Shown: in pieces, positions 4,484 to 62,054 of the stretch
How the letters are laid out: the number at the start of each line of letters is the position of its first letter
Numbering within the stretch: the first letter of the stretch is position 1
Source: an uncultured Oscillospiraceae bacterium
GTDB taxonomy: Bacteria > Bacillota > Clostridia > Oscillospirales > Oscillospiraceae
Direction of reading: 5' to 3'
DNA length: 63,270 bases
NCBI GenBank assembly: GCA_964371875.1
Contig: CAYJOS010000001.1
Span: 1 to 63,270 of the forward strand
Made by a program: the position numbers and the translations under genes
Notes under the pieces: generated by a model
Database searches by the model: none
What the model saw: only the letters and a program-made list of their open reading frames with translations
Told to the model about the DNA's origin: nothing

Positions 4484-6191
4484 TTTTTCCATTCCCCTTT
4501 TGTAAATTTCTGTGTTGTATTTTAAAGTTTTCAGCAGCTAAAAGTTGCTCTTTTGCACTCTTTAAAGTTGTTTCGGTTATGACATCACCGCCGTGAAGTC
4601 TTGCGAGTTCCTCTGCCCTGCCCTCGTCGCTTAAAACGCCGACGGAGGTTATGGTTTCGTCCTTTTTCTCGGCTTTTAAAATGTGAAAATGCCTGTCCGC
4701 CATGGCGGCAATTTGTGGTAAATGAGTGACGCACAAAACCTGCCTGTGCAGTGATAATGAGCCAAGTTTTTCGCCAACTCTTTGCGCCGCAATTCCCGAA
4801 ACTCCAGTGTCGACTTCGTCAAAAACCATAGTGCCCACGGCTTCGGTTTCGGCAAAAACATTCTTGATTGCAAGCATAATTCTTGAAAGCTCACCGCCCG
4901 AGGCGATGTTTGCAATTCGCCCAGCTGCCATGCCCTTGTTTGCAGTCATGAGGAAGCGAACTTCGTCGCAACCTGTTTTGTCAAAACCATTTTTTTGAGT
5001 GGATTTTGCAATTTCTACTACAAATTTTGCTGAAGGCATACTTAATTCAGTTAGTTCGGTTTCTATACGCTTTTGTAGTAAAAGAGCAGATTTTTGACGT
5101 GCTTTTGTCAATTTTTCGCCGATTTCTAAAACAAAGTTTCTGTCTGTATCAAGCTGTTTTTGTATTATTTGAAGTTTATCGGAGGAAAATTCTAAGCCGT
5201 TTAATTTCTCTTCACACTCTTTTAAATATGCAGGTAATTCATCGGCATCACGATTATATTTCTTTTGCAATCTGCGAATTTTTTGAATTCTCTCTTCAAT
5301 ATTGTCATATTCGTCAGGTGAAAATGATAAATTTCCCAGGAAATCTCTTATGGTTTCGACAGCGTTTTCAATCGAAAGTGTAGCAGTGTTAAGGCTGTCA
5401 TTTGCGTCTGAAATGTCACGAGAAAAGCTCATGGCTCGGCTGACAAAATCCCCTGCCTCAGAGCAGAGTGATGCTGCATTTGCCTCACCATCAGCAAGTA
5501 ATTCAAGGGCAGATTGGAGCGAGGAAGTCAACTTTTCGGAGTTTCTCAAAAGCTCTCGTCTTTCGGATAATTCTTCAAATTCTCCGACCTCAATTTTAGC
5601 TTCGGAAAGCTCTGAAACTGTGAATTTTAGGTTCTCAATTAAACGCTCTTTCTCGGCATCGTCCATGCTGAGAGAGTCGAACTCTTTGAGGGTTTCTCTC
5701 CATTTTTTATATGCTTCATTATATTTTAAAATTACATTTTTATAGTCGCCAAAAGTGTCTAAAAATCCAAGATGATTTGCTTCGTCGAGCAGTTGTCTGC
5801 CGTCGTTTTGACCGTGAATGTCAATGACGGAAGCGGCAAGTTCTCGAAGCTGAGAAGCAGTGGCAGGAGCGCCATTAATTCTAGCGCTGGACTTTCCATC
5901 ACCTGTCATTCTTCGAGTGATAATCAGTTCATCATCAGCTTCCATTTCGTTTTCCGAAAGCCAAGTAAGAGTTTCTTTTGAATGTGAAAAAACTGCGGTG
6001 ACAGAGGCTTTTTCACAGCCTGAACGCACCAAATCACGGGAAACACGTCCACCCATAATCGCGTTTAATGAGTCAATAATTATGGATTTACCAGCACCCG
6101 TTTCACCTGTTAGTACATTAAGTCCCTCGGTAAATTCAATGTCGGCTTTTTTAATAACTGCTATGTTTTCAATATGAAGTTCGGTCAGCAT
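4470..6191 (-). CDS. recN: DNA repair protein RecN
   Basis: Walker A is GETGAGKS, the middle is a long coiled coil, and the C-terminal ABC signature is SGGELSR with MVFDEVDTG. Confidence 0.95.
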
Positions 6192-35547: not shown

Positions 35548-36771
35548 CTATTCCGTTAGGAAAATTTCGCTTGCTGTGATTTCTGTAATTCTTATGCCAA
35601 AGCTGTCGTCAACAACAACGACGTCACCTTGAGCTATGCATTGACCATTAACAAGTAGGTCAACTTGCTCGCCTGCCATTCTGTCTAAGACGACAAGTGA
35701 ACCTTTGTTTAGTTCCAAAACGTCTTTGACAAGCTTTTTTGTACGACCAATTTCAACAGAAACTTCAACAGGAACGCCCATAACAAGTTCAAGGTTTGAG
35801 TCGAAAGCGCCGCCAACTGAAAGGTTATTTAGGTTAGGTCTTACAGGTTGGTCAACCTTAATAGTTCTCGGTGAATTGTCAACCTGACGACTACCAGCAA
35901 GTTGCATTTGTGTTAGTTCCATTTGCTGACGCATAAGATCCATCATTTGTGCAATTGTGTCGTTTAGTTGTGGTGAAACTGGCGCAGCTTGCATTTGCGG
36001 AGCTTGTTCGTAGTAAACAGGAGCAGCTGCGGCAGGTGTTGGTGGTGCAACAGGGGCTACGGCAACAGCTGGCTCAGGCGCAATTGGTGCAGGAGCTGGT
36101 GGCGCAACAGGTGTTGGTGGTGGAGCGACAGGAGCTGGAGCTTCAGGCACAACAGGAATTGGGTCTGGTTCTGCCTCAATTTCACCCATAAATCCGCTGA
36201 CAATTTCTTTAGCTAAGTCGATAGGAATTAGATAAAGGAACTGACAGTCTATATTATCTCCAATTAGCAGTGAAAAGCTGATTTCAGCTAAAATCTCATC
36301 AGTTGAGAAATATTTCTCTTTGAACTTATCTTGGTCTGCGATTTCAAAAACAAAGGGGGTTGAAATATCAACAGTTCTTCCAAGCATATCAGACAAAGCG
36401 GTGGAGGATGCACCCATCATTTGGTTCATAACCTCACCGATTGCACTGGAAGCGATTTCGTCTAGCTCGAAAGTTTCATCGTCAAATTGCATTGACATGA
36501 GCATTTCAAGTATAGCCCTAACATCGCTACGCTTTAAAATCATGATATTGCTACCCGTTAGCCCTACGGTGTTTTCAATTTCAACACCGACAGCAGGATC
36601 CATATCTTCGAATTCAAATTCATTTCTGCGTCTAACTCTAACAACTGGTGTTGTGATGTCAACACGAGTGCTTAACATATTAGCAACAGAAGTTGAAGCA
36701 GAACCAAGACTTATGTTCATAACTTCGCCTATGGCGTCTATTTCCAAAGGCTTTAAAACATTATCTTCCAT
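35548..36771 (-). CDS. fliY: Flagellar switch protein FliY (CheC-like domains plus FliN C-terminus) with a Pro/Ala-rich linker
   Basis: The CheC-like motifs are IDAIGEVMNISLGSASTS and SSAIGEVMNQMMGASST. A PAPVAPP-type linker of about 70 aa follows. The FliN/SpoA domain is LVVLDRMAGEQVDLLVNGQCIAQGDVVVV. Confidence 0.9.
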   Translation of the reverse strand: MEDNVLKPLEIDAIGEVMNISLGSASTSVANMLSTRVDITTPVVRVRRRNEFEFEDMDPAVGVEIENTVGLTGSNIMILKRSDVRAILEMLMSMQFDDETFELDEIASSAIGEVMNQMMGASSTALSDMLGRTVDISTPFVFEIADQDKFKEKYFSTDEILAEISFSLLIGDNIDCQFLYLIPIDLAKEIVSGFMGEIEAEPDPIPVVPEAPAPVAPPPTPVAPPAPAPIAPEPAVAVAPVAPPTPAAAAPVYYEQAPQMQAAPVSPQLNDTIAQMMDLMRQQMELTQMQLAGSRQVDNSPRTIKVDQPVRPNLNNLSVGGAFDSNLELVMGVPVEVSVEIGRTKKLVKDVLELNKGSLVVLDRMAGEQVDLLVNGQCIAQGDVVVVDDSFGIRITEITASEIFLTE

Positions 36772-44488: not shown

Positions 44489-45799
44489 TTAGCCGTTTAA
44501 AACTGTGTCCATCATTTCGTACATTTTAGTTTGGTTGCAATTTTCGCCCATATCTTGCTTTAAAAATTCCTTGACGGTGTCAATCTTTTTAATAGCGTGA
44601 TTTAGCTTTTTATTACTGCCGTCTTTATAAGCACCGATAGATATTAAATCTTCGTTTTGCTCATAAATACTCAAAATATCTCTCATTTGTGAGGCAGATT
44701 GTTTCTGTTTTGCGTCGACAATATTCGGCATAAGCCTTGAAATGCTTGAGCTGATATCTATTGCTGGGAAATGGTTTGAGTTGGCAAGTTTTCGACTTAA
44801 AACTATGTGTCCGTCCAAAATACCTCGGACGGTGTCGGCAACAGGCTCATTTGTGTCGTCACCCTCAACCAAGACAGTGTAAATTCCAGTGATAGAACCT
44901 TGGTTGAACATACCGCTTCTCTCCAAAAGTTTTGGAAATTCGGCATAAATCGACGGTGTATATCCACGGGCGACGGGTGGTTCGCCAGTTGCAAGCCCAA
45001 TTTCACGTTGAGCCATGGCAAATCTTGTAAGTGAATCCATCATCAGCATAACATTTTTGCCTTGATCTCTGAAATATTCCGCAATTGTTGTTGCAACTAG
45101 TGGGCATTTCATGCGGAGCATTGCAGGCTGGTCGGAGGTTGCGACAACTAAAACCGAGCGTTTCATGCCCTCGGGCCCAAGGTCGTGTTCGACAAATTCC
45201 CTGACCTCACGTCCACGTTCTCCAACCAGTGCGATTACGTTTATATCGGCTTCAACATTTCGGGCAATCATGCCCAAAAGTGTACTTTTTCCAACACCTG
45301 AACCTGCAAAAATTCCTATACGCTGACCCTTGCCTATGGTGTTTAGGGAGTCGATTGCGCGTATTCCAAAATGCATTCTCTCCCTAATGGGAGGTCTGTC
45401 CAAAGGGTTGATTTTGGGGTTTTCTACATAATAAAATTTTTCTGAGGGGAAAGCCCCTTTTCCGTCAATTGGATTTCCCATGGCGTCGATAATTCTGCCT
45501 TTAAGAAACTGCCCGACAGGGATTTTTAAACGTTTTTTTGTGTTTCTAACAAAACTATCAGGTCCAATTCCTGGAATATCTTCATAAGCCATAAGTTGGA
45601 TTTTATCGCCTTGAAATCCAACAACTTCGGCTGGGATTTGTTTTTTTTGGTCTTCATTATAAATGAGAACAATGTCGCCTATGTTTGCACCTTTGCCTGA
45701 AGCAGTCATAGAGATGCCCGTGACATTTTCAATTTTGCCGATATAACTGATGGTGTCGGCATTTTTTATCATCGTAGGTAAATCTCTTAGCATTGGCAA
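44489..45799 (-). CDS. fliI: Flagellum-specific ATPase FliI
   Basis: Walker A is GSGVGKST, Walker B is LMMDSLTR, and the overall layout resembles the F1 beta subunit. Confidence 0.95.
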   Translation of the reverse strand: MPMLRDLPTMIKNADTISYIGKIENVTGISMTASGKGANIGDIVLIYNEDQKKQIPAEVVGFQGDKIQLMAYEDIPGIGPDSFVRNTKKRLKIPVGQFLKGRIIDAMGNPIDGKGAFPSEKFYYVENPKINPLDRPPIRERMHFGIRAIDSLNTIGKGQRIGIFAGSGVGKSTLLGMIARNVEADINVIALVGERGREVREFVEHDLGPEGMKRSVLVVATSDQPAMLRMKCPLVATTIAEYFRDQGKNVMLMMDSLTRFAMAQREIGLATGEPPVARGYTPSIYAEFPKLLERSGMFNQGSITGIYTVLVEGDDTNEPVADTVRGILDGHIVLSRKLANSNHFPAIDISSSISRLMPNIVDAKQKQSASQMRDILSIYEQNEDLISIGAYKDGSNKKLNHAIKKIDTVKEFLKQDMGENCNQTKMYEMMDTVLNG

Positions 45800-46632: not shown

Positions 46633-47710
46633 TTATATCATCTCCTCCGCCGCCTTTACCGACGACAATTTCACCTTCTTCTTCAAGCTTTCTAATGATG
46701 TTAACGATACGTTGTTGCGCTTCTTCAACATCGCGAAGTCTTACATTAAATGTAATTTCAAGGTCGGATTTAATTGTTTCAGCCATTCTGGAAGACATGT
46801 TTGCAAAGAAAACATCCATGATTTCTTGACTTGAACTCTTAAGCGCATAGACAATGTCTTTCATGTTGCAATCTCTGATAAAACGTTGAATTGAGTGGCT
46901 GTCCATAAGTAGAATATCTTCGAAAACGAACATTTTTTTGCGGATTTCTTCTGCAAGTAATGGGTTGACTTTGCTCATCTCGTCGAAGATAAACTTCTCG
47001 TTTGACCTGTCCATGTGGTTCATGACGTCTGCGATATAGTCTATGCCGCCGATTTCTGTAAAGTCTGTTGTGAGAACGCTGTCGAATTTTTTGAGTAGAC
47101 TGCTTTCAATTGCACGGATAACTTCTGGTGAAGCACTTTCCATTTGGGCAATACTTTGAACAACCTTGATACGTGTTTTGTCGGGAAGTTCAGAGATAAG
47201 TGCCGCCGCTTGTCCCGGTTCTGCATAAGACAAAATCAAGGCGATTGCCTGAGGGCGCTCACGTTGCAAAACAGAATACAAGCTTTTTGTATCCATTTTT
47301 TGTATGAATTCAAATGAACGATTTTTAAGATATCTGTTCATTTTCTTCAGAAGTTCGGCAGCTGCCGCTTCGCCATAGGTTCTCTCTAAAACTGCACGGG
47401 CATATTCAATGCCGCCTTCTGTGACAACCTTTTGCGTTAGGCAAGCTTTGTAAAAATCATCCATTACAACGCTTGTGTCGTCTGAGGACATGTGCCCTAG
47501 TTTAGCAAGCTCTAATGTTAATTTTTCTACGTCTTCTTCGCTTAAATATTTATAAACTTTTGATGCACTATCAGCACCTAAAGCGGCGACGATAACAGCC
47601 GCTTTTTTTTGAAATGTAAGTTCAGGAGCAACGGCAGCGACTTCTGGCGTTTCGGCTACTTCTTGCTCTGTTTCTGTATCAGCTTTTTTAGAACTACGTG
47701 CCACTTTCAT
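46625..47710 (-). CDS. fliG: Flagellar rotor protein FliG
   Basis: The C-terminal torque-helix region is MSSRMAETIKSDLE...RLRDVEEAQQRIV, and an MFVFEDI motif is present. The N-terminal extension is about 30 aa. Confidence 0.95.
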   Translation of the reverse strand: MKVARSSKKADTETEQEVAETPEVAAVAPELTFQKKAAVIVAALGADSASKVYKYLSEEDVEKLTLELAKLGHMSSDDTSVVMDDFYKACLTQKVVTEGGIEYARAVLERTYGEAAAAELLKKMNRYLKNRSFEFIQKMDTKSLYSVLQRERPQAIALILSYAEPGQAAALISELPDKTRIKVVQSIAQMESASPEVIRAIESSLLKKFDSVLTTDFTEIGGIDYIADVMNHMDRSNEKFIFDEMSKVNPLLAEEIRKKMFVFEDILLMDSHSIQRFIRDCNMKDIVYALKSSSQEIMDVFFANMSSRMAETIKSDLEITFNVRLRDVEEAQQRIVNIIRKLEEEGEIVVGKGGGGDDIIV

Positions 47711-49295
47711 CGCCTCCGTTCAACCATTGTCTAATCATTTGTGCAGAAATTTCGGGATTTTCGTCGGCAAAAGCACGAACCATGTCACGAATTTCTGTTG
47801 ATTTATCGGGCGGAATATCGCCAAAGCTTGCAAATTCAACTCCATCACCGTTGACAAATCCAGCAATTTCACCTGCTGCGGCTGCTTCTGCTGCGGCGGC
47901 AAGACGTTTTTTCTTGGATCTTTTTGCAAGGATTATTGCTAGTACTATTACTAAAATCAACACAGCCAGACCGATAATTGCTACAAGTGGATTTTCTTGT
48001 ATGTATTCAATCGGAGAAATGTCAATTCCAAGCCCTGAAGAATCACTGCCTGAGCCGTAGAACGGTGCGGCGATAATTGAAATTTTATCCGCTCTGACAT
48101 CTGCTGCTATACCTGTTGCGTTACCGATTAAATCTCTCAAAAGTGATTCGTCGATTATTGTCGCTTCAAAACTGTTGATTGAAACTGCAACAGAAACGTC
48201 TTCAATTGTTGCGCCTTCTTCTTGTTGAGTTTGTTCAATTTCTTGGTTTACGAGATAATCTCTGTCGGCGGCGGTGCTTAAAACGTCGCCACCTGCTGTG
48301 TCTTCGTTGCCATTATATTGAGTTGCCTCTGCGTTTGTTTCAGTTCCGACGACTTCGTTTGCTCCGTCGCCACCTTGAAGAATTTCTGAAGAGGTTGTTT
48401 CGTGTGAAACGATGCCTTCTTTGTCGAATTCGTCTATTTTATCGGGAGTTGTGTATGTTGTGGTTTCTTTAACAGAAGAAGCAGAATTTAGCTTGCCCCA
48501 AACAGAAACTCTAACATTGTCTTCGCCATAAAATGGAATTAAAACATTAATCGCTTTACGTGTTAGCTCGTTTTCCATTTGCCTTAGAGTTTCCTCGGCA
48601 GAAACACCTTCGCCTGTTAACTCGGCTGTGGAAACTTCAAGTCCGTTGCCGTCGATGACAACAACATCTTCCATCAGCATTCCAGCAACACTAGTGGAAA
48701 CAAGGCGTTGTGCAGCTTGCGCTTGCTCTGCTGAGGGCGCTCCACCATCGTTCATTATAATGGTAACGGAAGCACTTGAACCCTCTTTTTCGCTTGCAGG
48801 CGACAAAATATATTGGTCTTCTTCAACTAGGGCGATTGTGACTTTTGCGTCTTTAACTCCGCCCCAAAGTCTGATAGTTGAGCCAATTCTGTCCTGCAAA
48901 TCGTATAGCTCTAGTTGTTGATTTTCAGCATCGGTTGACATGCCACCGGCATTGTCTAGATATGTACCATATGCAAATCCGCTTTTGGGATAGCCCTCAA
49001 AAACTAAAGTTGCACGGGTATTGTCGACAACCTTGCTGTCGACAAGAATATCCCCGTTTTGCAGATATTGATATTCAATTCCCTGTTCTTGGAGTCTTCC
49101 AGTGATTTGTGTTGCCTCGTCAGGTGCAACACCAGCAAACAAAACTTCATAGCTTGTGCGGTTTAGCATGACCGCACCAACAATTGCAAGAACAAGCACC
49201 AAAACAGCACCGCCTATAATAAGACCGAGTGTTTTTTTGCTAAATTTTTGAAGAAATTGTTTGAATTGAGATAACCAAAGTTTAATTTTGTCCAT
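47694..49295 (-). CDS. fliF: Flagellar MS-ring protein FliF
   Basis: At 533 aa it has two TM helices flanking ring-building motifs, and a C-terminal FliG-binding tail. Confidence 0.95.
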   Translation of the reverse strand: MDKIKLWLSQFKQFLQKFSKKTLGLIIGGAVLVLVLAIVGAVMLNRTSYEVLFAGVAPDEATQITGRLQEQGIEYQYLQNGDILVDSKVVDNTRATLVFEGYPKSGFAYGTYLDNAGGMSTDAENQQLELYDLQDRIGSTIRLWGGVKDAKVTIALVEEDQYILSPASEKEGSSASVTIIMNDGGAPSAEQAQAAQRLVSTSVAGMLMEDVVVIDGNGLEVSTAELTGEGVSAEETLRQMENELTRKAINVLIPFYGEDNVRVSVWGKLNSASSVKETTTYTTPDKIDEFDKEGIVSHETTSSEILQGGDGANEVVGTETNAEATQYNGNEDTAGGDVLSTAADRDYLVNQEIEQTQQEEGATIEDVSVAVSINSFEATIIDESLLRDLIGNATGIAADVRADKISIIAAPFYGSGSDSSGLGIDISPIEYIQENPLVAIIGLAVLILVIVLAIILAKRSKKKRLAAAAEAAAAGEIAGFVNGDGVEFASFGDIPPDKSTEIRDMVRAFADENPEISAQMIRQWLNGGDESGT

Positions 49296-51022: not shown

Positions 51023-51364
51023 CTATTCAGCCTCAACTACCTCAGCTGTTCCGGTTTCTTCAAGAATTTCGGCTTTGGTTTCGTCAATCAATCCTGAGGG
51101 TTTGTAGTTTAGGAAGTAGATATAAATATCGACTATCGCACGGTAAAGTTCTTCAGGAATTTCAGAGCCGAGTTTTAACTGAGTGAGCATGGTTGCAAGT
51201 GAGTTGTCTTCATAGACAGGAATGGAATTTTCCCTTGCGACTTCGACAATTTTCTCCGCAAGATATCCCATGCCAGAGGCAACTATAATCGGTGCGGCTT
51301 TGCCTGCTTCGTCATAGGAAAGCGCAACCGCCTTTTGGTTTAAAATTTCATTAAATTGAGACAT
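51023..51364 (-). CDS. Soluble paralog of the FlhB C-terminal domain (YlqH-like)
   Basis: KAVALSYDEAGKAAPIIVASGMGYLAEKIVEVARENSIPVYEDNSLATML...IPEELYRAIVDI aligns with the post-NPTH part of FlhB at 32377..33438. It has no TM region. Confidence 0.8.
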   Translation of the reverse strand: MSQFNEILNQKAVALSYDEAGKAAPIIVASGMGYLAEKIVEVARENSIPVYEDNSLATMLTQLKLGSEIPEELYRAIVDIYIYFLNYKPSGLIDETKAEILEETGTAEVVEAE

Positions 51365-52784
51365 TTACAGAGTTTTTCCTTTCAAAAATTTGTGGAAATG
51401 CAGTGGAAATTGGAATTGAACGCTTGTCGGTTTCTATAAAAAGTTCATCGGTTTTGATGTTATTTAAAGCCAAAATTCTGGAAATTTCATCTCGAATTAT
51501 GCCTATATCTTTTTCCAATTCCTCGGGGCAATTTAGCTGTAATTTTATGCTTTCGTTTGTGTATAAAAAGTATAAATCAAAAAATCCAACCTCTTGAATG
51601 TCGAATTTTATAAGACCTTGCAAAGTCTTTTCTTTGCCGTTTTTGTCCTTATTTCCCTCGGCGTCGGGGTCTATCCACATCTCGGAAAACATCAGTCTTT
51701 CGCCAACTTGTAGTGGTAACATCAAGTGCAAAACAGGCATATAAACGCTTTCGTTTAGTAGTATAGACTGCATTAAATTTCTGAAAACCATTTTGTTTTC
51801 AAGCCCTGCTTCGCCTGAAGCTCCGTTACGGATTAGCTCTATCATGCTGTCTGCCCACTCTTGTTGGTTTGCGGTTTTTTTATAGTCAGTTCCTTCCAAA
51901 ACTTGAAGCAAAACTGAGGTGTCGAAGTTTTTAAATTCCTGTTGCATGGCTTGATATTTCATGAGATTTTCAAAGGCCATAACAACACGGTCAGCAGAGC
52001 CGTTTTCACATCTTGCCATCAAAGTTGCAAGTGCAGCCGTGAGGTCACGAAGGTTTCCTCTGTTGTTGTTTCGGGTTATGTAATTATTCAGGAAGGGCAA
52101 AATTTCACCTTTGAAAACAGTGATATTTTCAGCCATACCCTCTCCCCTGCTACCTATATTATAATTGAGTTTTGTCAGCAGAGTATGGAAACCCTCCTTT
52201 GAAGATTGGAGCAAGTTTTTGTCAATTTGGTTTAACAAATCCGAAGCTGTGTTCATAAGGTGCGAACTCTCGCTCATATCGGTGTATCTTCGCAGAAAAT
52301 CCAAAATTCCCGTTTTGAGTTCAACTGAAGTTGTGTTTTCAAGTACTTGATTTAGTAAGGTGAAAAATGAACCTGTGAATTTTAAAGATGCGTTGGCTTG
52401 GTTTTGGACATAGTTTAAAACGTCAGCTTCGCCCATGCCTATCATTTCAAAAAATTGGGCAATTTGCTCTGCAAAATTATTTCCAACACCTGATTCAACT
52501 ATAGAGCCGAATTTTTGGAAAAATAATTTTGAAAATTCTTCGGTCATATTCGGGAGCATTTTTGTCTGCTGTACAAAATTTTCAAAGTTTGAGTCATATC
52601 GGAATTTTAGCCCAACCCCATTATCTTGCGGTGCTGAATCGCTTCGAGCGTCAGGTTTTGAAACCTTATCGGGCGTTATCGGCGCTTGAATTGCGGGGTC
52701 TGTGGTCTTCACGGGCCCTGTTTTCACATGATTTGCATTATCAAAACCACTTATAGGGGTGGTAACTTTTAATATATTAGACAT
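51351..52784 (-). CDS. Hypothetical 477-aa protein translationally coupled to the FlhB-C paralog (YlqG-like position)
   Basis: The ORF is long and uninterrupted and overlaps the downstream gene by 14 nt. The N-terminus is disordered. I recognised no catalytic motif. Confidence 0.6.
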   Translation of the reverse strand: MSNILKVTTPISGFDNANHVKTGPVKTTDPAIQAPITPDKVSKPDARSDSAPQDNGVGLKFRYDSNFENFVQQTKMLPNMTEEFSKLFFQKFGSIVESGVGNNFAEQIAQFFEMIGMGEADVLNYVQNQANASLKFTGSFFTLLNQVLENTTSVELKTGILDFLRRYTDMSESSHLMNTASDLLNQIDKNLLQSSKEGFHTLLTKLNYNIGSRGEGMAENITVFKGEILPFLNNYITRNNNRGNLRDLTAALATLMARCENGSADRVVMAFENLMKYQAMQQEFKNFDTSVLLQVLEGTDYKKTANQQEWADSMIELIRNGASGEAGLENKMVFRNLMQSILLNESVYMPVLHLMLPLQVGERLMFSEMWIDPDAEGNKDKNGKEKTLQGLIKFDIQEVGFFDLYFLYTNESIKLQLNCPEELEKDIGIIRDEISRILALNNIKTDELFIETDKRSIPISTAFPQIFERKNSVNVSI

Positions 52785-52961: not shown

Positions 52962-55106
52962 ATGAGCAATATAAATGATAGCTTATTTGAAGCGTATTTG
53001 TTCGAAACAAATTCTCTACTCGAAAAACTGGACGAACTTCTTCTTGAAGCGGAGAGTTCTGGGGACTTGAGTGAAGATGCCGTCAACGAAATCTTCCGAA
53101 GCATGCATACAATCAAAGGTTCTTCTGCTATGATGGAGTTTAAACCTCTTATGGAAATTGCTCATCATGTTGAAGATCTGTTCTTTGCAATTCGTGAAAA
53201 TGGCATGGGAGATTTTAGTCAAGAGAAAAAAGGTGAACTTTTTAACTTGCTATTCAAATGCAATGATAGGCTGAAAGAAGACGTTTTAAAAGTTGAAAAT
53301 GGAGAAGAGCTAAGTGACAACATTGCCGATTTTATTGAAGAAATCGACTCTTTCTTAAAGTCGACAAAAGACGAACCTGCAAAACCCGCTCCTGCACCTG
53401 TTGAAAACAAAGCTCCCGAAAGCGGAAATGCTGAAGTAACACGAGTTGTTGAAGTTGACCCTGAAGCACTCGTTGGTTTTACTTCTGAAATTGACGCACC
53501 AGAGCATCCATATTATCTTCATATCTTTTTTGATGATGACTGCGGAATGGAAAACCTTAGGGCTTTTATAATCGTTACTGCATTAAAAGAAGCCGAAATG
53601 GAGTTTTTATTTTCACCACCTGACATTGAAACAAATTCGGAAACTTCCGAAAAAATTGTCAATGATGGATTTTATGTTTTCTTCAAAACAGATGATGAAA
53701 TCGAAAAAGCAATACAAGCTATTGCTTCAATGGCAAACATCAAATCTTATGAAGTTTTGATGAATCCAAAGTATATCGACCCTGAAGCGGAAAAAGAAGC
53801 GGCGGCAGCTGCAGCGGCTGAAAAAGAAGCCGAGGCAGAAGTTGAAGTTGAAGAAAAACCAATTCAAAAAGCCGAGCCTAAAGCCGAAGTTTCAAAACAA
53901 ATCAAAGCTTTAAGTAATACAAAACAAAGCCTTATCAGCGTTAGCCTTTCAAAACTTGATAAACTTATGGCGCTAGTCGGAGAAATTGTTATCACCGAAT
54001 CTATGGTGGCATCATCTCCCGAGCTAAAAGGCGTAAAGCTTGATAATTTCCTTAAATCTACAAGACAGCTCAGAAAATTAACCGATGACTTGCAAGATAT
54101 TGCCATGTCACTTCGAATGGTTTCTGTTTCTGCTGTTTTCCAAAAAATGAACCGTATTGTTAGAGATATGACAAAATCTCTAAACAAAGACGTTGCACTT
54201 ACGATTATTGGTGAGGACACTGAGGTTGACAAAACTATTGTCGACTGCATTGCCGACCCCATTATGCATATAGTACGAAATGCCATGGATCACGGCATTG
54301 AAAAAACTGCCCAAGAAAGAATTGACAAAGGTAAAAACCCTCAAGGCGCTATTGTTCTGTCTGCTGAACACACAGGCAGTGAAGTTATCATCAAAATTTC
54401 AAACGATGGTAGTGAAATGGATGCAGAGAGAATTTTGGCTAAGGCAAACAAAAAAGGTCTTCTTTCAAAACCACCTGAAGAATATACTCGCAAGGAAGCT
54501 TTGTCGCTTCTCATGCTTCCAGGTTTTTCAACGAACTCACAAGTCACTGAATATTCAGGCAGAGGCGTGGGACTTGACGTTGTTAAGAAAAATGTTGAGT
54601 CAATCGGCGGAACAGTCACAATCACAAACGACCCTGGTGATGTCTGCTGCTTCACTTTGAAAATTCCGCTAACACTTGCAATTGTTGACGGTATGGAAAT
54701 TTCTGTCGGCGGAGAAGCTTTCACAATTCCGATTGCAAATATCAGGCAGTCATTCAAAGCTGATGACTCCGATATTTTATTCGACGCTTCAGGAAATGAA
54801 ATCATCTCATGGCAAGGCGAATTTTTCCCTGTTGTCAGACTGTATGATGCACTTCAAATCCCAGCGGAGTCAACAAAAATTGCTGATGGTATCTTGATTT
54901 TGGTTGAAGCAAATGAAAAACCATACTGCCTATTTGTTGACAAACTTCACGGCGAGCAACAGGTTGTTGTTAAGCCACTCCCCTCATATTTAAATGCTTA
55001 CAATATCAAAAATTCCGGTATTAGTGGTTGCACAATTTTGGGTAACGGTAATATCAGCATCATCCTTGATATTGGCAATCTATATACTTCAACTCAAAGA
55101 CCATAA
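52962..55106 (+). CDS. cheA: Chemotaxis histidine kinase CheA
   Basis: The HPt site is FRSMHTIKGSSAMM. The HATPase motifs are HIVRNAMDHGIE and GRGVGLDVV. The C-terminal domain is CheW-like. Confidence 0.95.
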   Translation: MSNINDSLFEAYLFETNSLLEKLDELLLEAESSGDLSEDAVNEIFRSMHTIKGSSAMMEFKPLMEIAHHVEDLFFAIRENGMGDFSQEKKGELFNLLFKCNDRLKEDVLKVENGEELSDNIADFIEEIDSFLKSTKDEPAKPAPAPVENKAPESGNAEVTRVVEVDPEALVGFTSEIDAPEHPYYLHIFFDDDCGMENLRAFIIVTALKEAEMEFLFSPPDIETNSETSEKIVNDGFYVFFKTDDEIEKAIQAIASMANIKSYEVLMNPKYIDPEAEKEAAAAAAAEKEAEAEVEVEEKPIQKAEPKAEVSKQIKALSNTKQSLISVSLSKLDKLMALVGEIVITESMVASSPELKGVKLDNFLKSTRQLRKLTDDLQDIAMSLRMVSVSAVFQKMNRIVRDMTKSLNKDVALTIIGEDTEVDKTIVDCIADPIMHIVRNAMDHGIEKTAQERIDKGKNPQGAIVLSAEHTGSEVIIKISNDGSEMDAERILAKANKKGLLSKPPEEYTRKEALSLLMLPGFSTNSQVTEYSGRGVGLDVVKKNVESIGGTVTITNDPGDVCCFTLKIPLTLAIVDGMEISVGGEAFTIPIANIRQSFKADDSDILFDASGNEIISWQGEFFPVVRLYDALQIPAESTKIADGILILVEANEKPYCLFVDKLHGEQQVVVKPLPSYLNAYNIKNSGISGCTILGNGNISIILDIGNLYTSTQRP

Positions 55107-55120
55107 TAGGAGGTGCAGTT

Positions 55121-55621
55121 ATGACAGATTTTGATTTTGACAACAATGAAATTGAATTTGACAGCGATAATGAAGCTCTAATTCAAGACTATGTCCCCAA
55201 GGACATTAAAAGCTACCTAACCTTTAAATCAGACGATGTGGTTATGGGTGTTCGTGCAGAAACTGTAATTGAAATAATTGCAAACTACATGATACGTCCT
55301 GTTCCGAAATTGCCTGAATTTATCAAAGGTGTTATAAATTTACGTGGACAAGTGCTTCCTGTAATTGACATGCGTTTACGCATGAACAAATCAGAAACCG
55401 TGTCTACCTCCGAAACTTGCGTCGTAATTTTGGACATAGACGGAACAGAAGTTGGGCTTATAGTCGACTCGGTTTTGCAAGTTCAAAGTGTCGATATGAA
55501 CAAAGTTTCCCCTGTTCCTGTGAAAAATGGTGATGCACTAGCAGACACTATGATTAGACTGTCTGAAGACTGCGTTGCACTTCTTCTCAATTGCCCTGCA
55601 ATCATTGCAAACGTATATTAA
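55121..55621 (+). CDS. cheW: Chemotaxis coupling protein CheW
   Basis: It is a 166-aa CheW-like domain (VINLRGQVLPVIDMR). Confidence 0.9.
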   Translation: MTDFDFDNNEIEFDSDNEALIQDYVPKDIKSYLTFKSDDVVMGVRAETVIEIIANYMIRPVPKLPEFIKGVINLRGQVLPVIDMRLRMNKSETVSTSETCVVILDIDGTEVGLIVDSVLQVQSVDMNKVSPVPVKNGDALADTMIRLSEDCVALLLNCPAIIANVY

Positions 55622-55634
55622 TGGAGGTGGCTAA

Positions 55635-56447
55635 GTGCTAACCCTTACGCAAGAAGATTATCTCAGGCTTGTTAAGTTTATGCGTACAAATTACGGCATA
55701 AATTTGGAGCGAAAAAAGGAACTTATCCAGAGTAGATTGTCAGATATAATCGCTTCAATGGGATATACTTCCTTTAAAGACTATGTAAAGCATATAGAAA
55801 CAAGCAAAGACCAAAACGAAATTGAGATTATCGTCAATGCCCTTACCACAAATTACACATATTTTATGCGTGAAAACACCCATTTTGACCATTTTAGGGA
55901 CGTAATTCTCCCAGATTTGGAAAAAAAGAAAAAGGACAAAGTTTTAAGTATATGGAGCGCAGGTTGCTCTTCGGGTGAAGAACCATACACGCTTTCCATG
56001 CTTATAATGGATCATTTTGGCGAAAAAGCCAAGCAGTGGGACACGAGAATTTTAGCTACTGACATTTCCGAAAAAGCTTTGCAAAAGGCTTTAATTGGAA
56101 AATATAAGGAAGAGTCAATCTCAAAAGTTCCTGAAAGCTGGAAAACGAAATATTTCGGCAAACCCGACAAATTGGGCGACTGCCAAGTTTCCGACCAAAT
56201 TCGTGCAAATGTCATCTACAAAACTTTTAATTTAATGGATAGAATACAATTTAAATTAAAATTTGATGTTATTTTCTGCCGAAATGTCATGATTTATTTC
56301 GACAGAGATACTCAAAAAGCACTAACCAAAAGGTTTTACGATGCGACAAACAGTGGCGGATATCTGTTCATTGGGCACTCTGAAAACCTTGTGGATAATG
56401 AAATGGGATATAATTATATCATGCCGGCGGCATACAGAAAAAATTAA
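55635..56447 (+). CDS. cheR: Chemotaxis methyltransferase CheR
   Basis: The GTG start follows GGAGGTGG. The SAM motif is IWSAGCSSGEEPY, and FCRNVMIYF is present. Confidence 0.9.
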   Translation: MLTLTQEDYLRLVKFMRTNYGINLERKKELIQSRLSDIIASMGYTSFKDYVKHIETSKDQNEIEIIVNALTTNYTYFMRENTHFDHFRDVILPDLEKKKKDKVLSIWSAGCSSGEEPYTLSMLIMDHFGEKAKQWDTRILATDISEKALQKALIGKYKEESISKVPESWKTKYFGKPDKLGDCQVSDQIRANVIYKTFNLMDRIQFKLKFDVIFCRNVMIYFDRDTQKALTKRFYDATNSGGYLFIGHSENLVDNEMGYNYIMPAAYRKN

Positions 56448-56597: not shown

Positions 56598-58088
56598 ATG
56601 CGTATTCAACATAATATTACAGCTCTAAACTCATACCGTAACCTAGGTATCAACAACAGTGCAGTTTCTAAAAACCTAGAAAAACTTTCTTCAGGTTATA
56701 GAATCAACCGCGCTGGTGACGATGCTGCTGGTCTTGCTATCTCTGAAAAAATGAGATCACAAATCACAGGTCTTGAAACAGCTCAAAAGAATGCTCAAGA
56801 CGGTATTTCACTTGTTCAAACTGCTGAAGGTGCTCTAACTGAAGTTCACTCAATGCTAAACCGTATGGTTGAGCTTGCAACACAATCTTCAAACGGTATC
56901 TATACAGATTCTGACCGTGCAAAACTAAACGACGAAATCAACCAACTAAACGACGAAATCGACAGAATTTCTGAAGCTACAAACTTCAACGGCATCAACC
57001 TACTTGATGGTTCTCTAGCTTCTAAAGCTGGTGTAAGCGGAGTTACAACTGATATAGCTGGTACAACCACTCCGTTAGCAGCAACTGGTGGTGCTAAATT
57101 CTCACAAGTCCTAACATTTGCTCAGGGCACTGACGAAGAAACTCAAACAGTTGAACTTGCTTACTTAGATAAAGATGGTGTGGCACAAAATGCTACAATT
57201 TCTTTTACAGCAGGTTCAACAGCTGCTGAAACAGGCACTAGTGCTCTTGAAGCACTTAAAGGTGTATTTGGTGAAGGATATACACTTACTGCTTCTGCTG
57301 CTGCTATCACTATAACAGCAAACGAAATTGTTGGTGAAGAAACATCAGTTCTAAAAATGACACAATATGATGGTACTTCTACAACAGCTGAAACAACAAC
57401 TGTCGCTGCAGCAACAGCTGGTAAAGATAATCTATATACAGCAACACTCAATACCGCAGATTTGGCAGATGAAATTTTCTTAGAAGTTGACGGACAAAAA
57501 TTCCAAGTTCTTTCTGAAGGTAAAACTGCTGAAGCTGGATACACAGGGATTTTTGTTGACCAACAAACAGGCGCACTAACAGGAGACTCAATCAAAGAAG
57601 TTGCAACTCAACTACAAGAACTTGGTATTGATGTTAAAGCAACTGCTACAGCACTAGAATTTACAGAAAAAACTGATTCATCTGTTAAAGGTGGTCTAAC
57701 ACTACAAATCGGTGATACATCAGACCAATTCAACAAACTAATTGTTGGTGTTCAAGATATGAGTGCTGATGCTCTAGGTCTAGGCTCACTTGATATCTCA
57801 ACATATGAAGGCGCTTCTGCTGCTATCGATGCTATCAACGCTGCTATCGAAAAAGTTTCAACAACTCGTTCAGCAATGGGTGCTATCCAAAACCGCCTTG
57901 ACCACACAATCAACAACCTAGGTGTTACAACTGAAAACATGACTGCTGCTGAAAGCCGTATTCGTGACGTTGACATGGCTAAGGAAATGATGGAATATAC
58001 AAAGAACAATATCCTTGTTCAATCTTCACAAGCTATGCTTGCGCAAGCTAACCAAATTCCACAAGGCGTTCTACAACTTCTACAATAA
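56598..58088 (+). CDS. fliC: Flagellin
   Basis: The conserved N-terminus is [16 protein letters not shown]...[23 protein letters not shown] and the C-terminus is [18 protein letters not shown]. The central region is variable and Thr/Ala-rich. Confidence 0.95.
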
Positions 58089-58104: not shown

Positions 58105-58135
58105 AAAAATGTCGCCCTCGGGCGACATTTTTTAT
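58105..58135. terminator. Bidirectional terminator between the flagellin and ANL-enzyme genes
   Basis: atgtcgcc (58109-58116) pairs with ggcgacat (58121-58128) across a ctcg loop, with a following T-run and a preceding A-run. Confidence 0.85.
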
Positions 58136-58145
58136 TTTAATTTTA

Positions 58146-59783
58146 CTATATATCCCCTGTTTGCTTCGCAACAATTCCAACCGCCCCATACTTCTCACGG
58201 AGTTTGGGTTTTTCTATTTTTCCAGTCGGATTTCTAGGAACTATATCAAAAATAACTTCTCTTGGTCTTTTATATCTAGGTAAAGAATGACAAAATTCGT
58301 CAATTTCTTCCTTCGTGCAACTAACATCGGGCTTCAATTCAATAATAGCTGCTGTGATTTCACCAAGCCTTGCATGAGGTCTGCCGATAACTGCAACATC
58401 CTTTATCTTGTCGTTTGCACGCAAAAAGTCCTCAATTTGCACAGGATAAATATTTTCACCACCAGTGATGATGACATCTTTTTTGCGGTCAACCAAGTAG
58501 TAAAAACCATCTTCGTCAATCCTCGCCATGTCACCAGTGAACAGCCAACCATCAGCCAAAACCGCCTTGGTCGCCTCCTCATCCCTGTAGTAACAAGTCA
58601 TCAGTCCTGCGCCCGAAACCGCAAGCTCCCCTACCTCACCTTTGGCTACTTCATTTCGATTTTCATCGACAATTTTCGCAGACCAACCAAATCCAGGTAT
58701 GCCAATTGCGCCAACTTTGTGAATATTTTCTACACCAAGGTGTATGCAACCAGGGCCGATTGACTCGCTCAAACCGTAGTTTGTGTCGTAATCATGATGT
58801 GGAAAATACTCTTTCCAACGCTTGATAAGGCTTGGTGGAACAGGTTGAGCGCCGATGTGCATTAGTCGCCAAGCGCTTAAATCATAGTCTGAAAGCTTCA
58901 AAACTCCACTGTCAAGTGCATCCAAAATGTCCTGTGCCCATGGAACTAATAGCCAAACTATGGAAACTTTTTCCTCGCTCGCAGTTTTTAAAATCCACTC
59001 AGGACTAATTCCACGGAGCAAAATTGCCTTACTTCCAGCCAAAAGACTGCCAAACCAGTGCATTTTTGCGCCTGTGTGATACAGCGGTGGCATACATAAA
59101 AAACAGTCGTTTCTGTCTTGTGAATGGTGCTTTTGCTCGCAAAGACAAGCGTGAACAAGGCTCTCGTGATTGTGCAAAATCGCCTTCGGGAAACCAGTTG
59201 TGCCAGAGGAAAAATAGATAGCAGCGTCGTCAGTGTCAGAAATTTCAATCGACGGATTTCGACCAGTGCAGTACGACAAAAATTGGTAATAGCTCTGCGC
59301 ATATTCAGGAGTGTGCCCACCGACGTAGTATAGACTTCTAATATTTGGAATATCATCTTTGATTTCAGCAACACGATCTTTAAATTCTCTGCCAAAAATT
59401 AGGAGAGAAGAGTCTGAAAGGTCAAGGCAATACTTAATTTCGTCAGCAGTGTAGCGGTAGTTGAGCGGAACTGCAACAGCTCCGGCTTTAAGAGTCCCGA
59501 AATAAATCGGTAGCCATTCTATGCAATTCATCAGCAAAATGGCAACTTTTTCGCCTTTTTTGATGCCATTTGCAAGTAATAAATTGGCAAATTGGTTCGC
59601 ACGTCTGTCAAAATCTTGCCAAGTTAATTCACGGCGGTATGCGTTATCGACGTCGGCTTCGACCAGATTAAATTCTGACCAGTCCAATGTTTTTCTGCCC
59701 TCACGTTCGGGGTTGATTTCGATTAAACATGTTTCAGTTGTGTATTTTTTTGCATTTCCTTCTAAAAAAGTGGTAATTGGCAT
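58146..59783 (-). CDS. ANL-superfamily adenylate-forming enzyme (acyl-CoA synthetase/ligase-like)
   Basis: The AMP-binding motifs are YFSSGTTGFPKAI, YGLSES, TGDMARIDEDGFYYLVDRKKDVIITGGENIYP and a terminal GKIEKPKLR. The ATG at 59783 follows GGAGAA. Confidence 0.85.
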   Translation of the reverse strand: MPITTFLEGNAKKYTTETCLIEINPEREGRKTLDWSEFNLVEADVDNAYRRELTWQDFDRRANQFANLLLANGIKKGEKVAILLMNCIEWLPIYFGTLKAGAVAVPLNYRYTADEIKYCLDLSDSSLLIFGREFKDRVAEIKDDIPNIRSLYYVGGHTPEYAQSYYQFLSYCTGRNPSIEISDTDDAAIYFSSGTTGFPKAILHNHESLVHACLCEQKHHSQDRNDCFLCMPPLYHTGAKMHWFGSLLAGSKAILLRGISPEWILKTASEEKVSIVWLLVPWAQDILDALDSGVLKLSDYDLSAWRLMHIGAQPVPPSLIKRWKEYFPHHDYDTNYGLSESIGPGCIHLGVENIHKVGAIGIPGFGWSAKIVDENRNEVAKGEVGELAVSGAGLMTCYYRDEEATKAVLADGWLFTGDMARIDEDGFYYLVDRKKDVIITGGENIYPVQIEDFLRANDKIKDVAVIGRPHARLGEITAAIIELKPDVSCTKEEIDEFCHSLPRYKRPREVIFDIVPRNPTGKIEKPKLREKYGAVGIVAKQTGDI

Positions 59784-59803
59784 GTTATTTCTCCTTTTTT
59801 GCA

Positions 59804-60070
59804 TAAAAAAATCCCGTCCTATCCTAAGGACGAGATTGAAAATTCTCGTGGTACCACCTTGGGTTTGCACATGCCTCACGACATATGCCTCGCAGAGTTC
59901 AAAAAAACTCTCGGTGCTGTAACGTGCACTCACGTCGTAGCCTACTTGATATCGTTCGGTACGCTGCTAAGAGATGTATTCACAAAGAAAAACCATGCGC
60001 CTCTCATCAAACGGCAACTTTCTGAATGGATAAAAACTTTGTTACTTCTTCCCTATTATCGCTTTTTAAT
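59804..60070 (-). promoter_or_regulatory. T-box riboswitch leader with a UAC (Tyr) specifier
   Basis: All on the minus strand. Stem I starts GCGAUAAUAGGGAAGAAGUA. The specifier loop is GAA-UAC-A, with the codon at 59976-59978. An F-box-like CACGUUACAG is present. The T-box is AAACCCAAGGUGGUACCACGAG (59845-59868). The terminator is CUCGUCC/GGACGGG plus U7 (59804-59834). Confidence 0.85.
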
Positions 60071-60079
60071 ATGCATTAT

Positions 60080-60108
60080 ATTATAGACCTATTTTGGTCG
60101 TTTGTCAA
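60080..60108 (-). promoter_or_regulatory. Consensus sigma-A promoter driving the T-box leader
   Basis: On the minus strand: TTGACA (60103-60108, overlapping the thiN stop), a 17-nt spacer and TATAAT (60080-60085). Confidence 0.75.
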
Positions 60109-60755
60109 TAATTTTTTAATAAAATTTCAATTTCTTCTGCTCTGCAATTAAATGTAATACTTAATCTGCCATTTTTAACTGAAATTTCGGATTTTTTTCC
60201 AATAAATTCATTGCTTACTCCCAGTGGGTGAGTTGCCGTTAAATTTCCATTTTTTAACTCATATTTGAGACCTGAAATGTCAACATTTTCCGCTTTTTCA
60301 CTGTTTGCAAAGACAGAAATATAGCCATTTTCACGTTTTGGCAAGTTGATTTTGCGGTTTTTTATCACAGTTAGCGCAGTGTTTTCTCCCCAAAGCCAAG
60401 CAGTTAAATTTTTTTCTGCTAGGTAATTTAAGCATTGAATATTCGCCAAACTGTGGTCAAATCTTCCACCTAAACCGCCATAAATTAGGAATTTTTTATA
60501 CCCTAATTCTATGCCCTCGCAGATTGCAAGGAACATGTCCGTGTCGTCTTTTTCGGGCTTGTGTACCAAGGTTTTGGTGGAATTTGGAATATAGCCAAGC
60601 GAGTCAAAATCACCAACAGCGAGGTTTGGTTCTATACCTATTTTTAGTAAATGTGCATAGCCACCATCGGCGGAAATTATATAGTCATTTTCATTTTTAT
60701 TAATCGAAATGCCCTCACAGGCGCCTGCGCCAACAATATAACAAATTCCTTGCAT
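60105..60755 (-). CDS. thiN: Thiamine pyrophosphokinase
   Basis: The ATG at 60755 follows GGAG. The motifs are ISADGGYAHL, GDFDS, KDDTDM and GGLGGRFDH. Confidence 0.85.
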   Translation of the reverse strand: MQGICYIVGAGACEGISINKNENDYIISADGGYAHLLKIGIEPNLAVGDFDSLGYIPNSTKTLVHKPEKDDTDMFLAICEGIELGYKKFLIYGGLGGRFDHSLANIQCLNYLAEKNLTAWLWGENTALTVIKNRKINLPKRENGYISVFANSEKAENVDISGLKYELKNGNLTATHPLGVSNEFIGKKSEISVKNGRLSITFNCRAEEIEILLKNY

Positions 60756-60887
60756 AGTTGCTCCAATACTTTTTTTACTGATAATACCATATTTACGCAA
60801 AAAGTCAATAAAAAACTCTTTATTTTTAGAAATTTAATGTTATAATGTATTAATGTGCTGAATAAAAAAAGAGAGGAAGTAACAAAA

Positions 60888-62054
60888 ATGCGTTTTGCGA
60901 AGAGAATGGAAAGATTTACCGAAGGTGTTTTTTCAACACTTTTGGATGTAAAAAATAAAAGAATTGCCGAGGGAAAATCTGTGGTCGACCTCAGTGTCGG
61001 CACTCCGAACATCCCCCCTGCCCCTCATATTAAGGAAGCAATTGTCAATTCTATTAATGATAGTTCAAAATTTATTTATGCGATTTCTGACACGAGTAGA
61101 CTGAAAAATGCGGTTGCAGATTGGTATAAAACCAGATATGATGTCATCTTAAACCCTGAAACCGAGGTGGTTTCTTTGCTTGGTTCACAGGAGGGACTCG
61201 CTCACATTTCGCTGACTTTGGCTGACGAGGGAGACATAATTATGGTGCCTGACCCTTGCTATCCTGTGTTCAGCGACGGCCCTAAAATCGCTGGTGCTGA
61301 ACTTTACCACATGTTGCAAAGACCCGAAAATGATTTCATCATAGATTTAAGAGAAATACCCACAGATATTGCAAAAAAAGCAAAAATGATGATAATTTCA
61401 TATCCAAATAATCCCACAACAGCTGTTGCTCCTGATAGTTTTTATCTCGATTTAATCAAGTTTGCAAAGGAATTTGACATCGCTGTTTTGCACGATAACG
61501 CATACAGTGAGCTGACTTTTGATGGAAAAACAACTGGCAGTTTTCTTAGATTTGAGGGTGCTCGTGAGGTCGGAGTTGAGTTCAATTCACTGTCAAAAAC
61601 TTACGGTTTAGCAGGTGCAAGAATTGGATTTTGCGTTGGTAATTCTGACATGGTATCACACCTTAAAAAGCTCAAATCAACCATGGATTACGGCTTGTTT
61701 TTGCCACTTCAAGAGGGTGCAATTGCTGCTATTTCAGGCGACCAAGCATGTGTGAAAACCACCTGTGATGCATATGAAAAACGTAGAGATGTACTTTGCG
61801 ATTCGTTTTCAAAAATAGGCTGGAAAGTTGAGAAATGCCCTGCAACTATGTTTATTTGGGCTAAAATACCTGGAAAATATTCAAGTTCTGCCGATTTTGC
61901 GATGCGACTTGTCAACGAAGCCGGTGTGATCGTAACCCCTGGAATTGCCTTTGGAGAGAGTGGTGAGGGTTATGTTAGAATTGCCCTTGTACAAAACGAA
62001 GAGGAAATTTTGAAGGCAGCCGAAGCGATTGATAAAAGTGGTATTTTGAAATAA
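60888..62054 (+). CDS. Class I/II PLP-dependent aminotransferase
   Basis: The ATG at 60888 follows GAGAGGAAG. The PLP-lysine motif is NSLSKTYGLAGARIGF, and NNPT and LHDNAY motifs are present. Confidence 0.85.
   Translation: MRFAKRMERFTEGVFSTLLDVKNKRIAEGKSVVDLSVGTPNIPPAPHIKEAIVNSINDSSKFIYAISDTSRLKNAVADWYKTRYDVILNPETEVVSLLGSQEGLAHISLTLADEGDIIMVPDPCYPVFSDGPKIAGAELYHMLQRPENDFIIDLREIPTDIAKKAKMMIISYPNNPTTAVAPDSFYLDLIKFAKEFDIAVLHDNAYSELTFDGKTTGSFLRFEGAREVGVEFNSLSKTYGLAGARIGFCVGNSDMVSHLKKLKSTMDYGLFLPLQEGAIAAISGDQACVKTTCDAYEKRRDVLCDSFSKIGWKVEKCPATMFIWAKIPGKYSSSADFAMRLVNEAGVIVTPGIAFGESGEGYVRIALVQNEEEILKAAEAIDKSGILK

Follow-up and report, generated by a model that had tools for sequence, protein, structure and literature searches.

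Why should the gene of an acyl-CoA-ligase-like enzyme stand behind a leader that senses uncharged tRNA-Tyr? The question is raised by a 63,270-nucleotide stretch of DNA from an uncultured Oscillospiraceae bacterium (contig CAYJOS010000001.1 of assembly GCA_964371875.1), which was analysed at its full length and is called the window below. An initial annotation, made from the letters alone, had described a T-box riboswitch on its minus strand, between a promoter and the gene of a class I adenylate-forming (ANL) enzyme. We combined covariance-model and profile searches of the leader with a comparison of orthologous loci, of their neighbouring genes and of transcript coverage at the orthologous locus of Sporomusa ovata. 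Our reading is that the leader is probably a tyrosine-starvation switch on an arylacetate-CoA ligase, whose product would feed a reductive carboxylation and, through it, the formation of tyrosine.

The leader upstream of the ligase gene

A scan of the whole window against Rfam gave a single match at gathering level, to the T-box leader model RF00230 at 59823-60068 (-); it scores 113.7 bits (E 2.2e-24), where the gathering score is 93, and covers model positions 1-219, which bears out the description of the leader as complete. An nhmmer profile of orthologous leaders matches the same place (E 2e-50). No second T-box was found in the 63 kb by Rfam, by the nhmmer profile or by a scan for the T-box motif, all of which agree on the single site. 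Ahead of the leader lies a sigma-70-type promoter at 60080-60108 (-), previously called perfect and indeed matching the consensus at 12 of 12 positions, with TTGACA at 60108-60103, a 17-nucleotide spacer and TATAAT at 60085-60080.

The Rfam alignment resolves the usual parts of such a leader, all on the minus strand. Stem I extends over 59966-60062 and comprises, beyond its 5' side (GCGAUAAUAGGGAAGAAGUA, as first read), a variant kink-turn (UAA...UAG), the motif AGUA, an AGAAA bulge, the distal loop GUUUGAUGAGAG and the specifier loop. Its distal platform, made up of AGAAA in the place of AGAGA together with the distal loop, is aligned with high posterior probability, with two non-canonical pairs flagged. 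Stem II (59936-59963), the Stem IIA/B element (59923-59934) and Stem III (59867-59889) follow. The antiterminator (59826-59860) contains the T-box sequence GGUGGUACCACGAG at 59858-59845, where it had been placed originally, and its UGGU bulge is the partner of the tRNA 3' end. The intrinsic terminator (59805-59837) consists of an 11-bp stem at 59837-59810 and a run of seven U at 59811-59805, with a local fold of -20.7 kcal/mol; the terminator and its U run had thus been recognised correctly, with coordinates (59804-59834) that were off by a few bases. Because the 3' arm of the antiterminator is at the same time the 5' arm of the terminator, the two structures are mutually exclusive. A ribosome-binding site, AGGAG (59795-59791, -), precedes the ATG at 59783, the start codon proposed before.

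The specificity of the leader depends on the specifier codon, and here the covariance-model alignment puts UAC into the specifier column (59976-59978, -), with GAA before it and the conserved A after it (GAA-UAC-A, 59981-59975), so that the tyrosine codon read initially stands. The gathering score, the specifier loop, the distal platform and the T-box sequence with its UGGN bulge and antiterminator/terminator pair together place the leader in RF00230. It is almost certainly a transcription-attenuating T-box riboswitch with tyrosine specificity acting on the ANL gene, judging from these sequence features, and as a riboswitch it is unexceptional within a well-known class. The Bacillus subtilis tyrS leader is the founding tyrosine (UAC) T-box. 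It and the RF00230 leaders have the same Stem I with GAA-UAC-A, the same Stems II, IIA/B and III, the 14-nucleotide T-box sequence with its UGGN bulge, and the antiterminator/terminator pair with its U run. Differences lie in the lineage variants of the kink-turn (UAA/UAG) and of AGAAA and in the target, which in the window is the ANL ligase and not tyrS; the tyrS gene of the window has no T-box, and the only tyrosine T-box in the 63 kb is that of the ligase.

Carried over to this leader, the established T-box mechanism would work as follows. When tyrosine is plentiful, charged tRNA-Tyr would fail to stabilise the antiterminator, the terminator stem with its seven U would form, and transcription would end before the gene. 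Uncharged tRNA-Tyr would pair through its anticodon GUA with the UAC of Stem I and through its 3' end ACCA with the UGGU of the T-box bulge, upon which the antiterminator would form and the ligase would be made.

Conservation of the leader and attenuation in Sporomusa ovata

The initial annotation had suggested looking for tyrosine T-boxes in front of orthologous genes. We compared 80 genome loci and 7 contigs of the closest relatives (87 loci, or 88 with the window), in which T-boxes were detected with Rfam, the motif scan and the nhmmer profile of leaders; the motif scan and the profile recovered all Rfam matches and added no false site beside the ligase. A T-box precedes the ligase or its operon at 20 of the 88 loci, with UAC (tyrosine) as the specifier at 17 and UUC (phenylalanine) at 3, and no other specifier codon occurs before the ligase among these 20 T-box loci. 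The UAC leaders stand directly before the ligase in the window, L002, L038, L040 (S. ovata), L044, L059, L069, L081, L083 and L084, and before an operon of symporter, ligase and IorAB in L009, L020, L022, L031, L039, L079 and L080, while the UUC leaders stand before the ligase in three Faecousia loci (L035, L036 and L054). The ligase loci with a T-box span the Oscillospiraceae, other Clostridia and one Negativicute. Tyrosine or phenylalanine specificity is thus retained despite a median identity of only about 58% between leaders (45-87% among the 19 aligned), and the specifier column of this alignment reads UAC in 16 leaders and UUC in 3; the tyrosine leader of L084 was found afterwards and left out. 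Three further T-boxes, at L011, L015 and L016, belong to unrelated neighbouring genes.

Within the sub-lineage of the window, the leaders of L002 (647-909), L081 (5709-5953) and L083 (5719-5962) score below the Rfam gathering score, and were recovered by the profile and are clear by eye. They share AGAAA for AGAGA and a kink-turn whose 3' side is UAG or CAG, and that of L083 carries GGUGGUAACACG in addition. The leader of L084 (4673-4915), detected by the profile only and outside the Rfam runs, shows GAAUACA and the T-box motif. Scores below the gathering score mean that leaders of this sub-lineage are missed by automated annotation, which is a gap in detection.

Stranded RNA sequencing of S. 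ovata allowed the behaviour of one orthologous leader (L040) to be followed in vivo, with coverage from three 2026 runs and assembled contigs from four 2016 runs. In the three runs, sense coverage starts at about 3641-3660, just past a TTGACA-17-TATAAT promoter, and reaches 450-980x over the leader. It then declines to 128-284x at 3862-3878, to 9-32x at 3879-3895 and to 0-3x from 3896 to the start codon, and the ligase open reading frame (ORF) is covered at 0-9x. The drop at the T-box/terminator is about 100-fold or greater, and this profile is the signature of an attenuator in the OFF state, showing attenuation in vivo. Read-through transcripts exist as well, since contigs of the four 2016 runs join the leader and the ORF (3573-5655), and in two of them the contig extends to 7524 or beyond, into the transporter gene of the CstA family that lies downstream of the ligase. 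Just upstream of the promoter, at 3444-3600 of the same locus, lies a short multi-copy repeat; its coverage exceeds 1000x on either strand, and it holds numerous variant positions and contig ends.

The ligase, its neighbours and its candidate substrate

The ligase gene (58146-59783, -) encodes 545 amino acids that match PF00501 (2e-71) and PF13193 (7e-10), and is predicted to encode an arylacetate-CoA ligase. Its AMP-binding N-terminal domain, its small C-terminal domain and its core motifs make the protein a member of the ANL superfamily, as had been proposed, and the motifs SSGTTGFPK, YGLSE, TGD, the GGENIYP region and PTGKIEK are invariant in 18 orthologues. The mechanical ORF list also gives a 595-amino-acid ORF with a GTG start, an artefact of reading on through the leader. 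None of the 25 best-scoring of 108 matching NCBIfam models reached its cut-off, the best being PRK06187 with 397.2 bits against 476, which leaves the protein outside the long-chain fatty-acid-CoA ligase (FadD) models. Nor does it have the architecture of PaaK (TIGR02155; about 430 amino acids, AMP-binding_C_2), as it carries PF13193 and not PF14535 and is only 25% identical over 147 amino acids to a PaaK-like representative (E 2.5e-4). The nearest solved structures, those of Mycobacterium tuberculosis FadD13 and FadD5 (PDB 3r44 and 8r2q), have the same two-domain ANL fold (E 1e-68 to 1e-70; Foldseek E 2e-42) at about 28% identity. An AlphaFold2 model built from the 18-sequence alignment had a predicted local distance difference test (pLDDT) score of 76. 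What sets the window protein apart from the two mycobacterial enzymes is a conserved additional stretch near its N terminus (residues about 25-50, with low pLDDT) and a genomic context unrelated to lipid metabolism.

The family is large and closely conserved. Orthologues occur in >595 genome loci, at 66-81% identity overall and 66-75% among the 80 that were kept, with hosts among the Oscillospiraceae, Lachnospiraceae and other Clostridia as well as S. ovata, Dehalobacter and Pelotomaculum, and the database names of the family are generic only. Orthologues of 66-69% identity (L025, L027, L029, L076, L013 and L075) also lie in metagenome-assembled genomes labelled Thermoguttaceae/planctomycete, Lentisphaeria, Chloroflexota or Dehalococcoidia, which points either to the horizontal transfer of a gene under strong conservation or to contigs assigned to the wrong bin. 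Some loci have a second copy of the same family nearby (L055 1-1973, L007 8019-9551, L034 2039-3697 and L076 1475-3748), and in L055 a T-box-like motif, AGTGGTACCACG, lies ahead of that copy, at position 14, where the locus is cut off.

We clustered the flanking ORFs of the 80 genome loci and annotated the cluster representatives. The two subunits of indolepyruvate:ferredoxin oxidoreductase (IOR), IorA and IorB, stand beside the ligase at 36 of the 80 loci (TIGR03336 with 708.8 bits, cut-off 650.9; NF005325 with 273.9 bits, cut-off 230), and IorAB are present in 13 T-box loci. Less frequent neighbours are a sodium:solute symporter (PF00474; 23 loci), a PaaK-like ligase (TIGR02155 with 538 bits, below the cut-off of 646; 14 loci), an Amidohydro_2 protein (PF04909; 5 loci), an ACT-pair protein (PF19571; 4 loci) and, after IorB, a class I aminotransferase (PF00155; 2 loci, L034 and L051). 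A minimal unit is found in L039, where a tyrosine T-box is followed by symporter, ligase, IorA and IorB and a convergent gene closes the unit, with the ANL enzyme as the sole ligase. This gene set is exactly that required for the import of an arylacetate and its conversion to arylpyruvate.

On the strength of the leaders and the synteny, a role of the ligase in tyrosine or phenylalanine supply is quite likely, and for its substrate the comparative genomics make us lean towards an arylacetate. The ligase would make arylacetyl-CoA, most likely from 4-hydroxyphenylacetate or from arylacetates more broadly; IorAB, running in reverse, would reductively carboxylate arylacetyl-CoA to arylpyruvate; and transamination would yield tyrosine (or phenylalanine), so that fermentation end-products would be salvaged into aromatic amino acids during tyrosine shortage. 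There is biochemical precedent for this chemistry. IOR is described as reversible and has been proposed to be biosynthetic in methanogens (PMC4162585; PMC13285125), Methanococcus maripaludis converts aryl acids to aromatic amino acids via IOR (Porat et al., as cited in PMC4162585), and rumen anaerobes convert phenylacetate to phenylalanine (Allison 1965, as cited in PMC7356843). The chemistry proposed for these routes, from aryl acid via arylacetyl-CoA and arylpyruvate to the amino acid, is identical to that considered here; the systems differ in their organisms and, as far as found, in their ligase family, and no riboswitch control was described for them. A further close parallel is an AMP-forming ligase adjacent to IOR in Bacteroides, which was assayed as an arylacetate-CoA ligase and for which the authors argue a biosynthetic role of IOR, the ligase in their proposal driving IOR in the direction of aromatic amino acids (PMC13285125). 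That enzyme is of the same AMP-forming type and is likewise linked to IorAB. Its family is not stated in that paper; by our reading it matches the PaaK-like type of about 435 amino acids (cluster c4), unlike the 545-amino-acid, FadD-like ANL enzyme of the window, and T-box control of it is not reported there.

The initial annotation had offered two kinds of function, and only one of them gained from this comparison. The synteny with IorAB, the symporter and the PaaK-like ligase agrees with the supply or salvage of tyrosine or aromatic acids. Adenylation of tyrosine or another amino acid, as by an amide-bond-forming or aminoacyl-forming ANL enzyme that makes no CoA thioester of an acid, gained no support, and we consider it highly improbable: some ANL enzymes are indeed amide synthetases, and one structure, 8pyy, is among the distant structural matches, yet a tyrosine-consuming enzyme induced in tyrosine starvation would make no regulatory sense, the conserved partner is a CoA-dependent oxidoreductase, and the conserved neighbourhood includes neither a carrier protein nor a condensation domain nor a gene of peptide synthesis. 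The direction of IOR bears on a catabolic role, which is also very improbable. IOR is oxidative in fermenting archaea, and that of Bacteroides thetaiotaomicron has been linked to phenylacetate production (PMC13285125); however, a T-box activates genes on the lack of an amino acid, the opposite of a catabolic need, and AMP-forming ligases favour the formation of the thioester, the catabolic clusters described relying instead on Pta/kinase pairs or ADP-forming ligases (PMC13285125). The annotation had further called the target unusual. This is apt for the pathway and the enzyme family and not for the regulatory principle, since a gene best read as one of salvage biosynthesis fits the general logic of T-box regulons.

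Several observations weigh against a salvage ligase under tyrosine control, and they touch its leader, its distribution and its substrate. The basal kink-turn (GA motif) of Stem I is non-canonical in the window, with UAA for UGA on the 5' strand and UAG for GAG on the 3' strand. At 68 of the 88 loci there is no T-box. Even in the window's own clade (74-81% identity), in which the ligase is usually a stand-alone gene, the window, L002, L081, L083 and L084 have one and L001, L082, L085, L086 and L087 do not, and this patchy distribution is one of the three weakest points of the reading, beside the candidate status of the substrate and the lack of IOR genes in the window. In S. ovata most leader transcripts end at 3874, within the T-box/antiterminator region and about 40 nucleotides before the terminator U run (3915-3919); a library preparation biased against the hairpin, or processing of the RNA at its 3' end, could be the cause. 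The deviant motifs, with the several clade members that fall below the Rfam threshold, would suit an ordinary fatty-acid-CoA ligase whose T-box association is accidental or whose leader is decaying, and the best NCBIfam and PDB matches of the protein are fatty-acyl-CoA ligases. We nevertheless regard such a ligase as most improbable. The NCBIfam score stays under its cut-off; the kink-turn (UAA/UAG) and AGAAA, off the T-box consensus in the window, recur in related form in its nearest relatives (L002, L081, L083 and L084) and are thus a conserved lineage variant and not decay; the specifier codons are those of tyrosine or phenylalanine alone, from Oscillospiraceae and other Clostridia to a Negativicute, and the ligase is linked to IorAB; and attenuation by the S. 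ovata leader is strong in vivo. Fatty-acid activation thus joins amino-acid adenylation and catabolism as a poor fit to the regulatory logic and the synteny, and all three are less likely than a part in salvage.

The remaining difficulties concern the substrate. A Foldseek search of the PDB gave near-equal ranks (E about 1e-37 to 1e-42) to fatty-acyl, anthraniloyl, feruloyl, coumaroyl and benzoyl ligases, and with such generic ANL matches neither sequence nor fold resolves the substrate. Positions that might determine specificity were rejected as substrate evidence, as they gave no convincing difference between tyrosine and phenylalanine pockets: tyrosine- and phenylalanine-controlled orthologues differ in 24 columns, none of them in a core motif and all compatible with drift of the Faecousia lineage. 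In the window, tblastn found no gene for IorA, IorB, the symporter or the PaaK-like ligase, so that the ligase-iorAB adjacency that marks a salvage operon is absent there and present at 36 of the 80 orthologous loci. Finally, at 14 loci a PaaK-like ligase, whose Bacteroides relative was assayed as an arylacetate-CoA ligase, lies in the same operon, and this co-occurrence means that the ANL enzyme could have a different substrate. The ligase might then activate another aromatic precursor, such as 3-(4-hydroxyphenyl)propionate, an aryl-lactate, 4-coumarate or 4-hydroxybenzoate, with tyrosine and phenylalanine supplied from something other than arylacetate and the PaaK-like enzyme, where present, serving as the arylacetate ligase. 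This is the most serious competitor, being compatible both with the Bacteroides assays on arylacetates (PMC13285125) and with a fold search in which feruloyl-, coumaroyl- and anthraniloyl-CoA ligases rank level with fatty-acyl ligases, but we think it unlikely. A second ligase is missing from the vicinity at about half of the IorAB-linked loci, among them the tyrosine T-box operons of L020, L022 and L039. The ligase likewise lacks conserved neighbours that would shorten, hydrate or oxidise a side chain, and arylacetyl-CoAs are the only CoA substrates of IOR.

Genes around the leader and implications of the switch

In the window, the T-box promoter directly adjoins the gene of a thiamine diphosphokinase (60105-60800, -; TIGR01378), whose stop codon overlaps the -35 box. 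No terminator was seen between this gene and the T-box/ligase unit, so that read-through from upstream into the unit is possible. IOR requires thiamine diphosphate, and the adjacency may be a coincidence. On the other side, a bidirectional terminator (58105-58132), with a 12-bp stem and T runs on both strands, separates the ligase gene from a convergent flagellin gene, and the ligase gene of the window is therefore monocistronic. Divergent from the thiamine kinase gene lies a class I/II aminotransferase gene (60855-62054, +), for which the best NCBIfam models are those of LL-diaminopimelate aminotransferase, below their cut-off. Although grouped in one cluster with the IorB-following aminotransferase of L034 and L051, it is only 22.7% identical to it, which does not support a link to the ligase, and it was not counted as a member of the system.

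The tyrosyl-tRNA synthetase gene (3260-4492, -; PF00579 and SYY_C) shares 23 nucleotides with a RecN-like ORF (4470-6191, -), at the 3' end of the latter. A large flagellar and chemotaxis region occupies about 30000-58100, with genes for FlhA (30316-32373), a FliM/N-CheC protein (35548-36771), FliI (44489-45799), FliF (47694-49295), CheA (52962-55106), CheW (55121-55621) and CheR (55635-56447) and the flagellin gene convergent with the ligase gene (56598-58088). Amid these genes, an ORF of 477 amino acids (51351-52784, -) matches nothing in Pfam or NCBIfam.

T-box regulon surveys and their supplements, as well as full-text literature searches, gave no mention of T-box control of an acyl-CoA ligase or of indolepyruvate or phenylacetate genes. 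As far as checked, this target of a T-box is new, and so are its association with IorAB operons and the function predicted for a large orphan family of enzymes. The T-box acts as a built-in functional label, as it marks a gene that is wanted when tRNA-Tyr is uncharged; it labels a widespread, uncharacterised ANL family, and the label extends to the IorAB operons linked with it. It also provides independent, regulatory evidence on the direction of IOR in anaerobic Firmicutes, a question left as a hypothesis for Bacteroides in a 2026 paper (PMC13285125).

We regard it as an evenly balanced proposition that this FadD-like ANL family is an unrecognised 4-hydroxyphenylacetate/phenylacetate-CoA ligase which, together with IorAB and a sodium symporter, would form a pathway governed by tyrosine and phenylalanine T-boxes in many gut, rumen and sediment Clostridia and a Negativicute, rebuilding aromatic amino acids from arylacetates excreted by other members of the community. 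If this is true, genes could be assigned to the old route from phenylacetate and 4-hydroxyphenylacetate to amino acids and to the reductive carboxylation that isotope labelling first revealed in rumen bacteria in 1965; the pathway would have a built-in physiological sensor, and IOR would run biosynthetically in these bacteria. It would further explain the cross-feeding of aromatic metabolites in gut and rumen, including precursors of p-cresol and phenylacetylglutamine, and genome-based predictions of amino-acid auxotrophy would improve.

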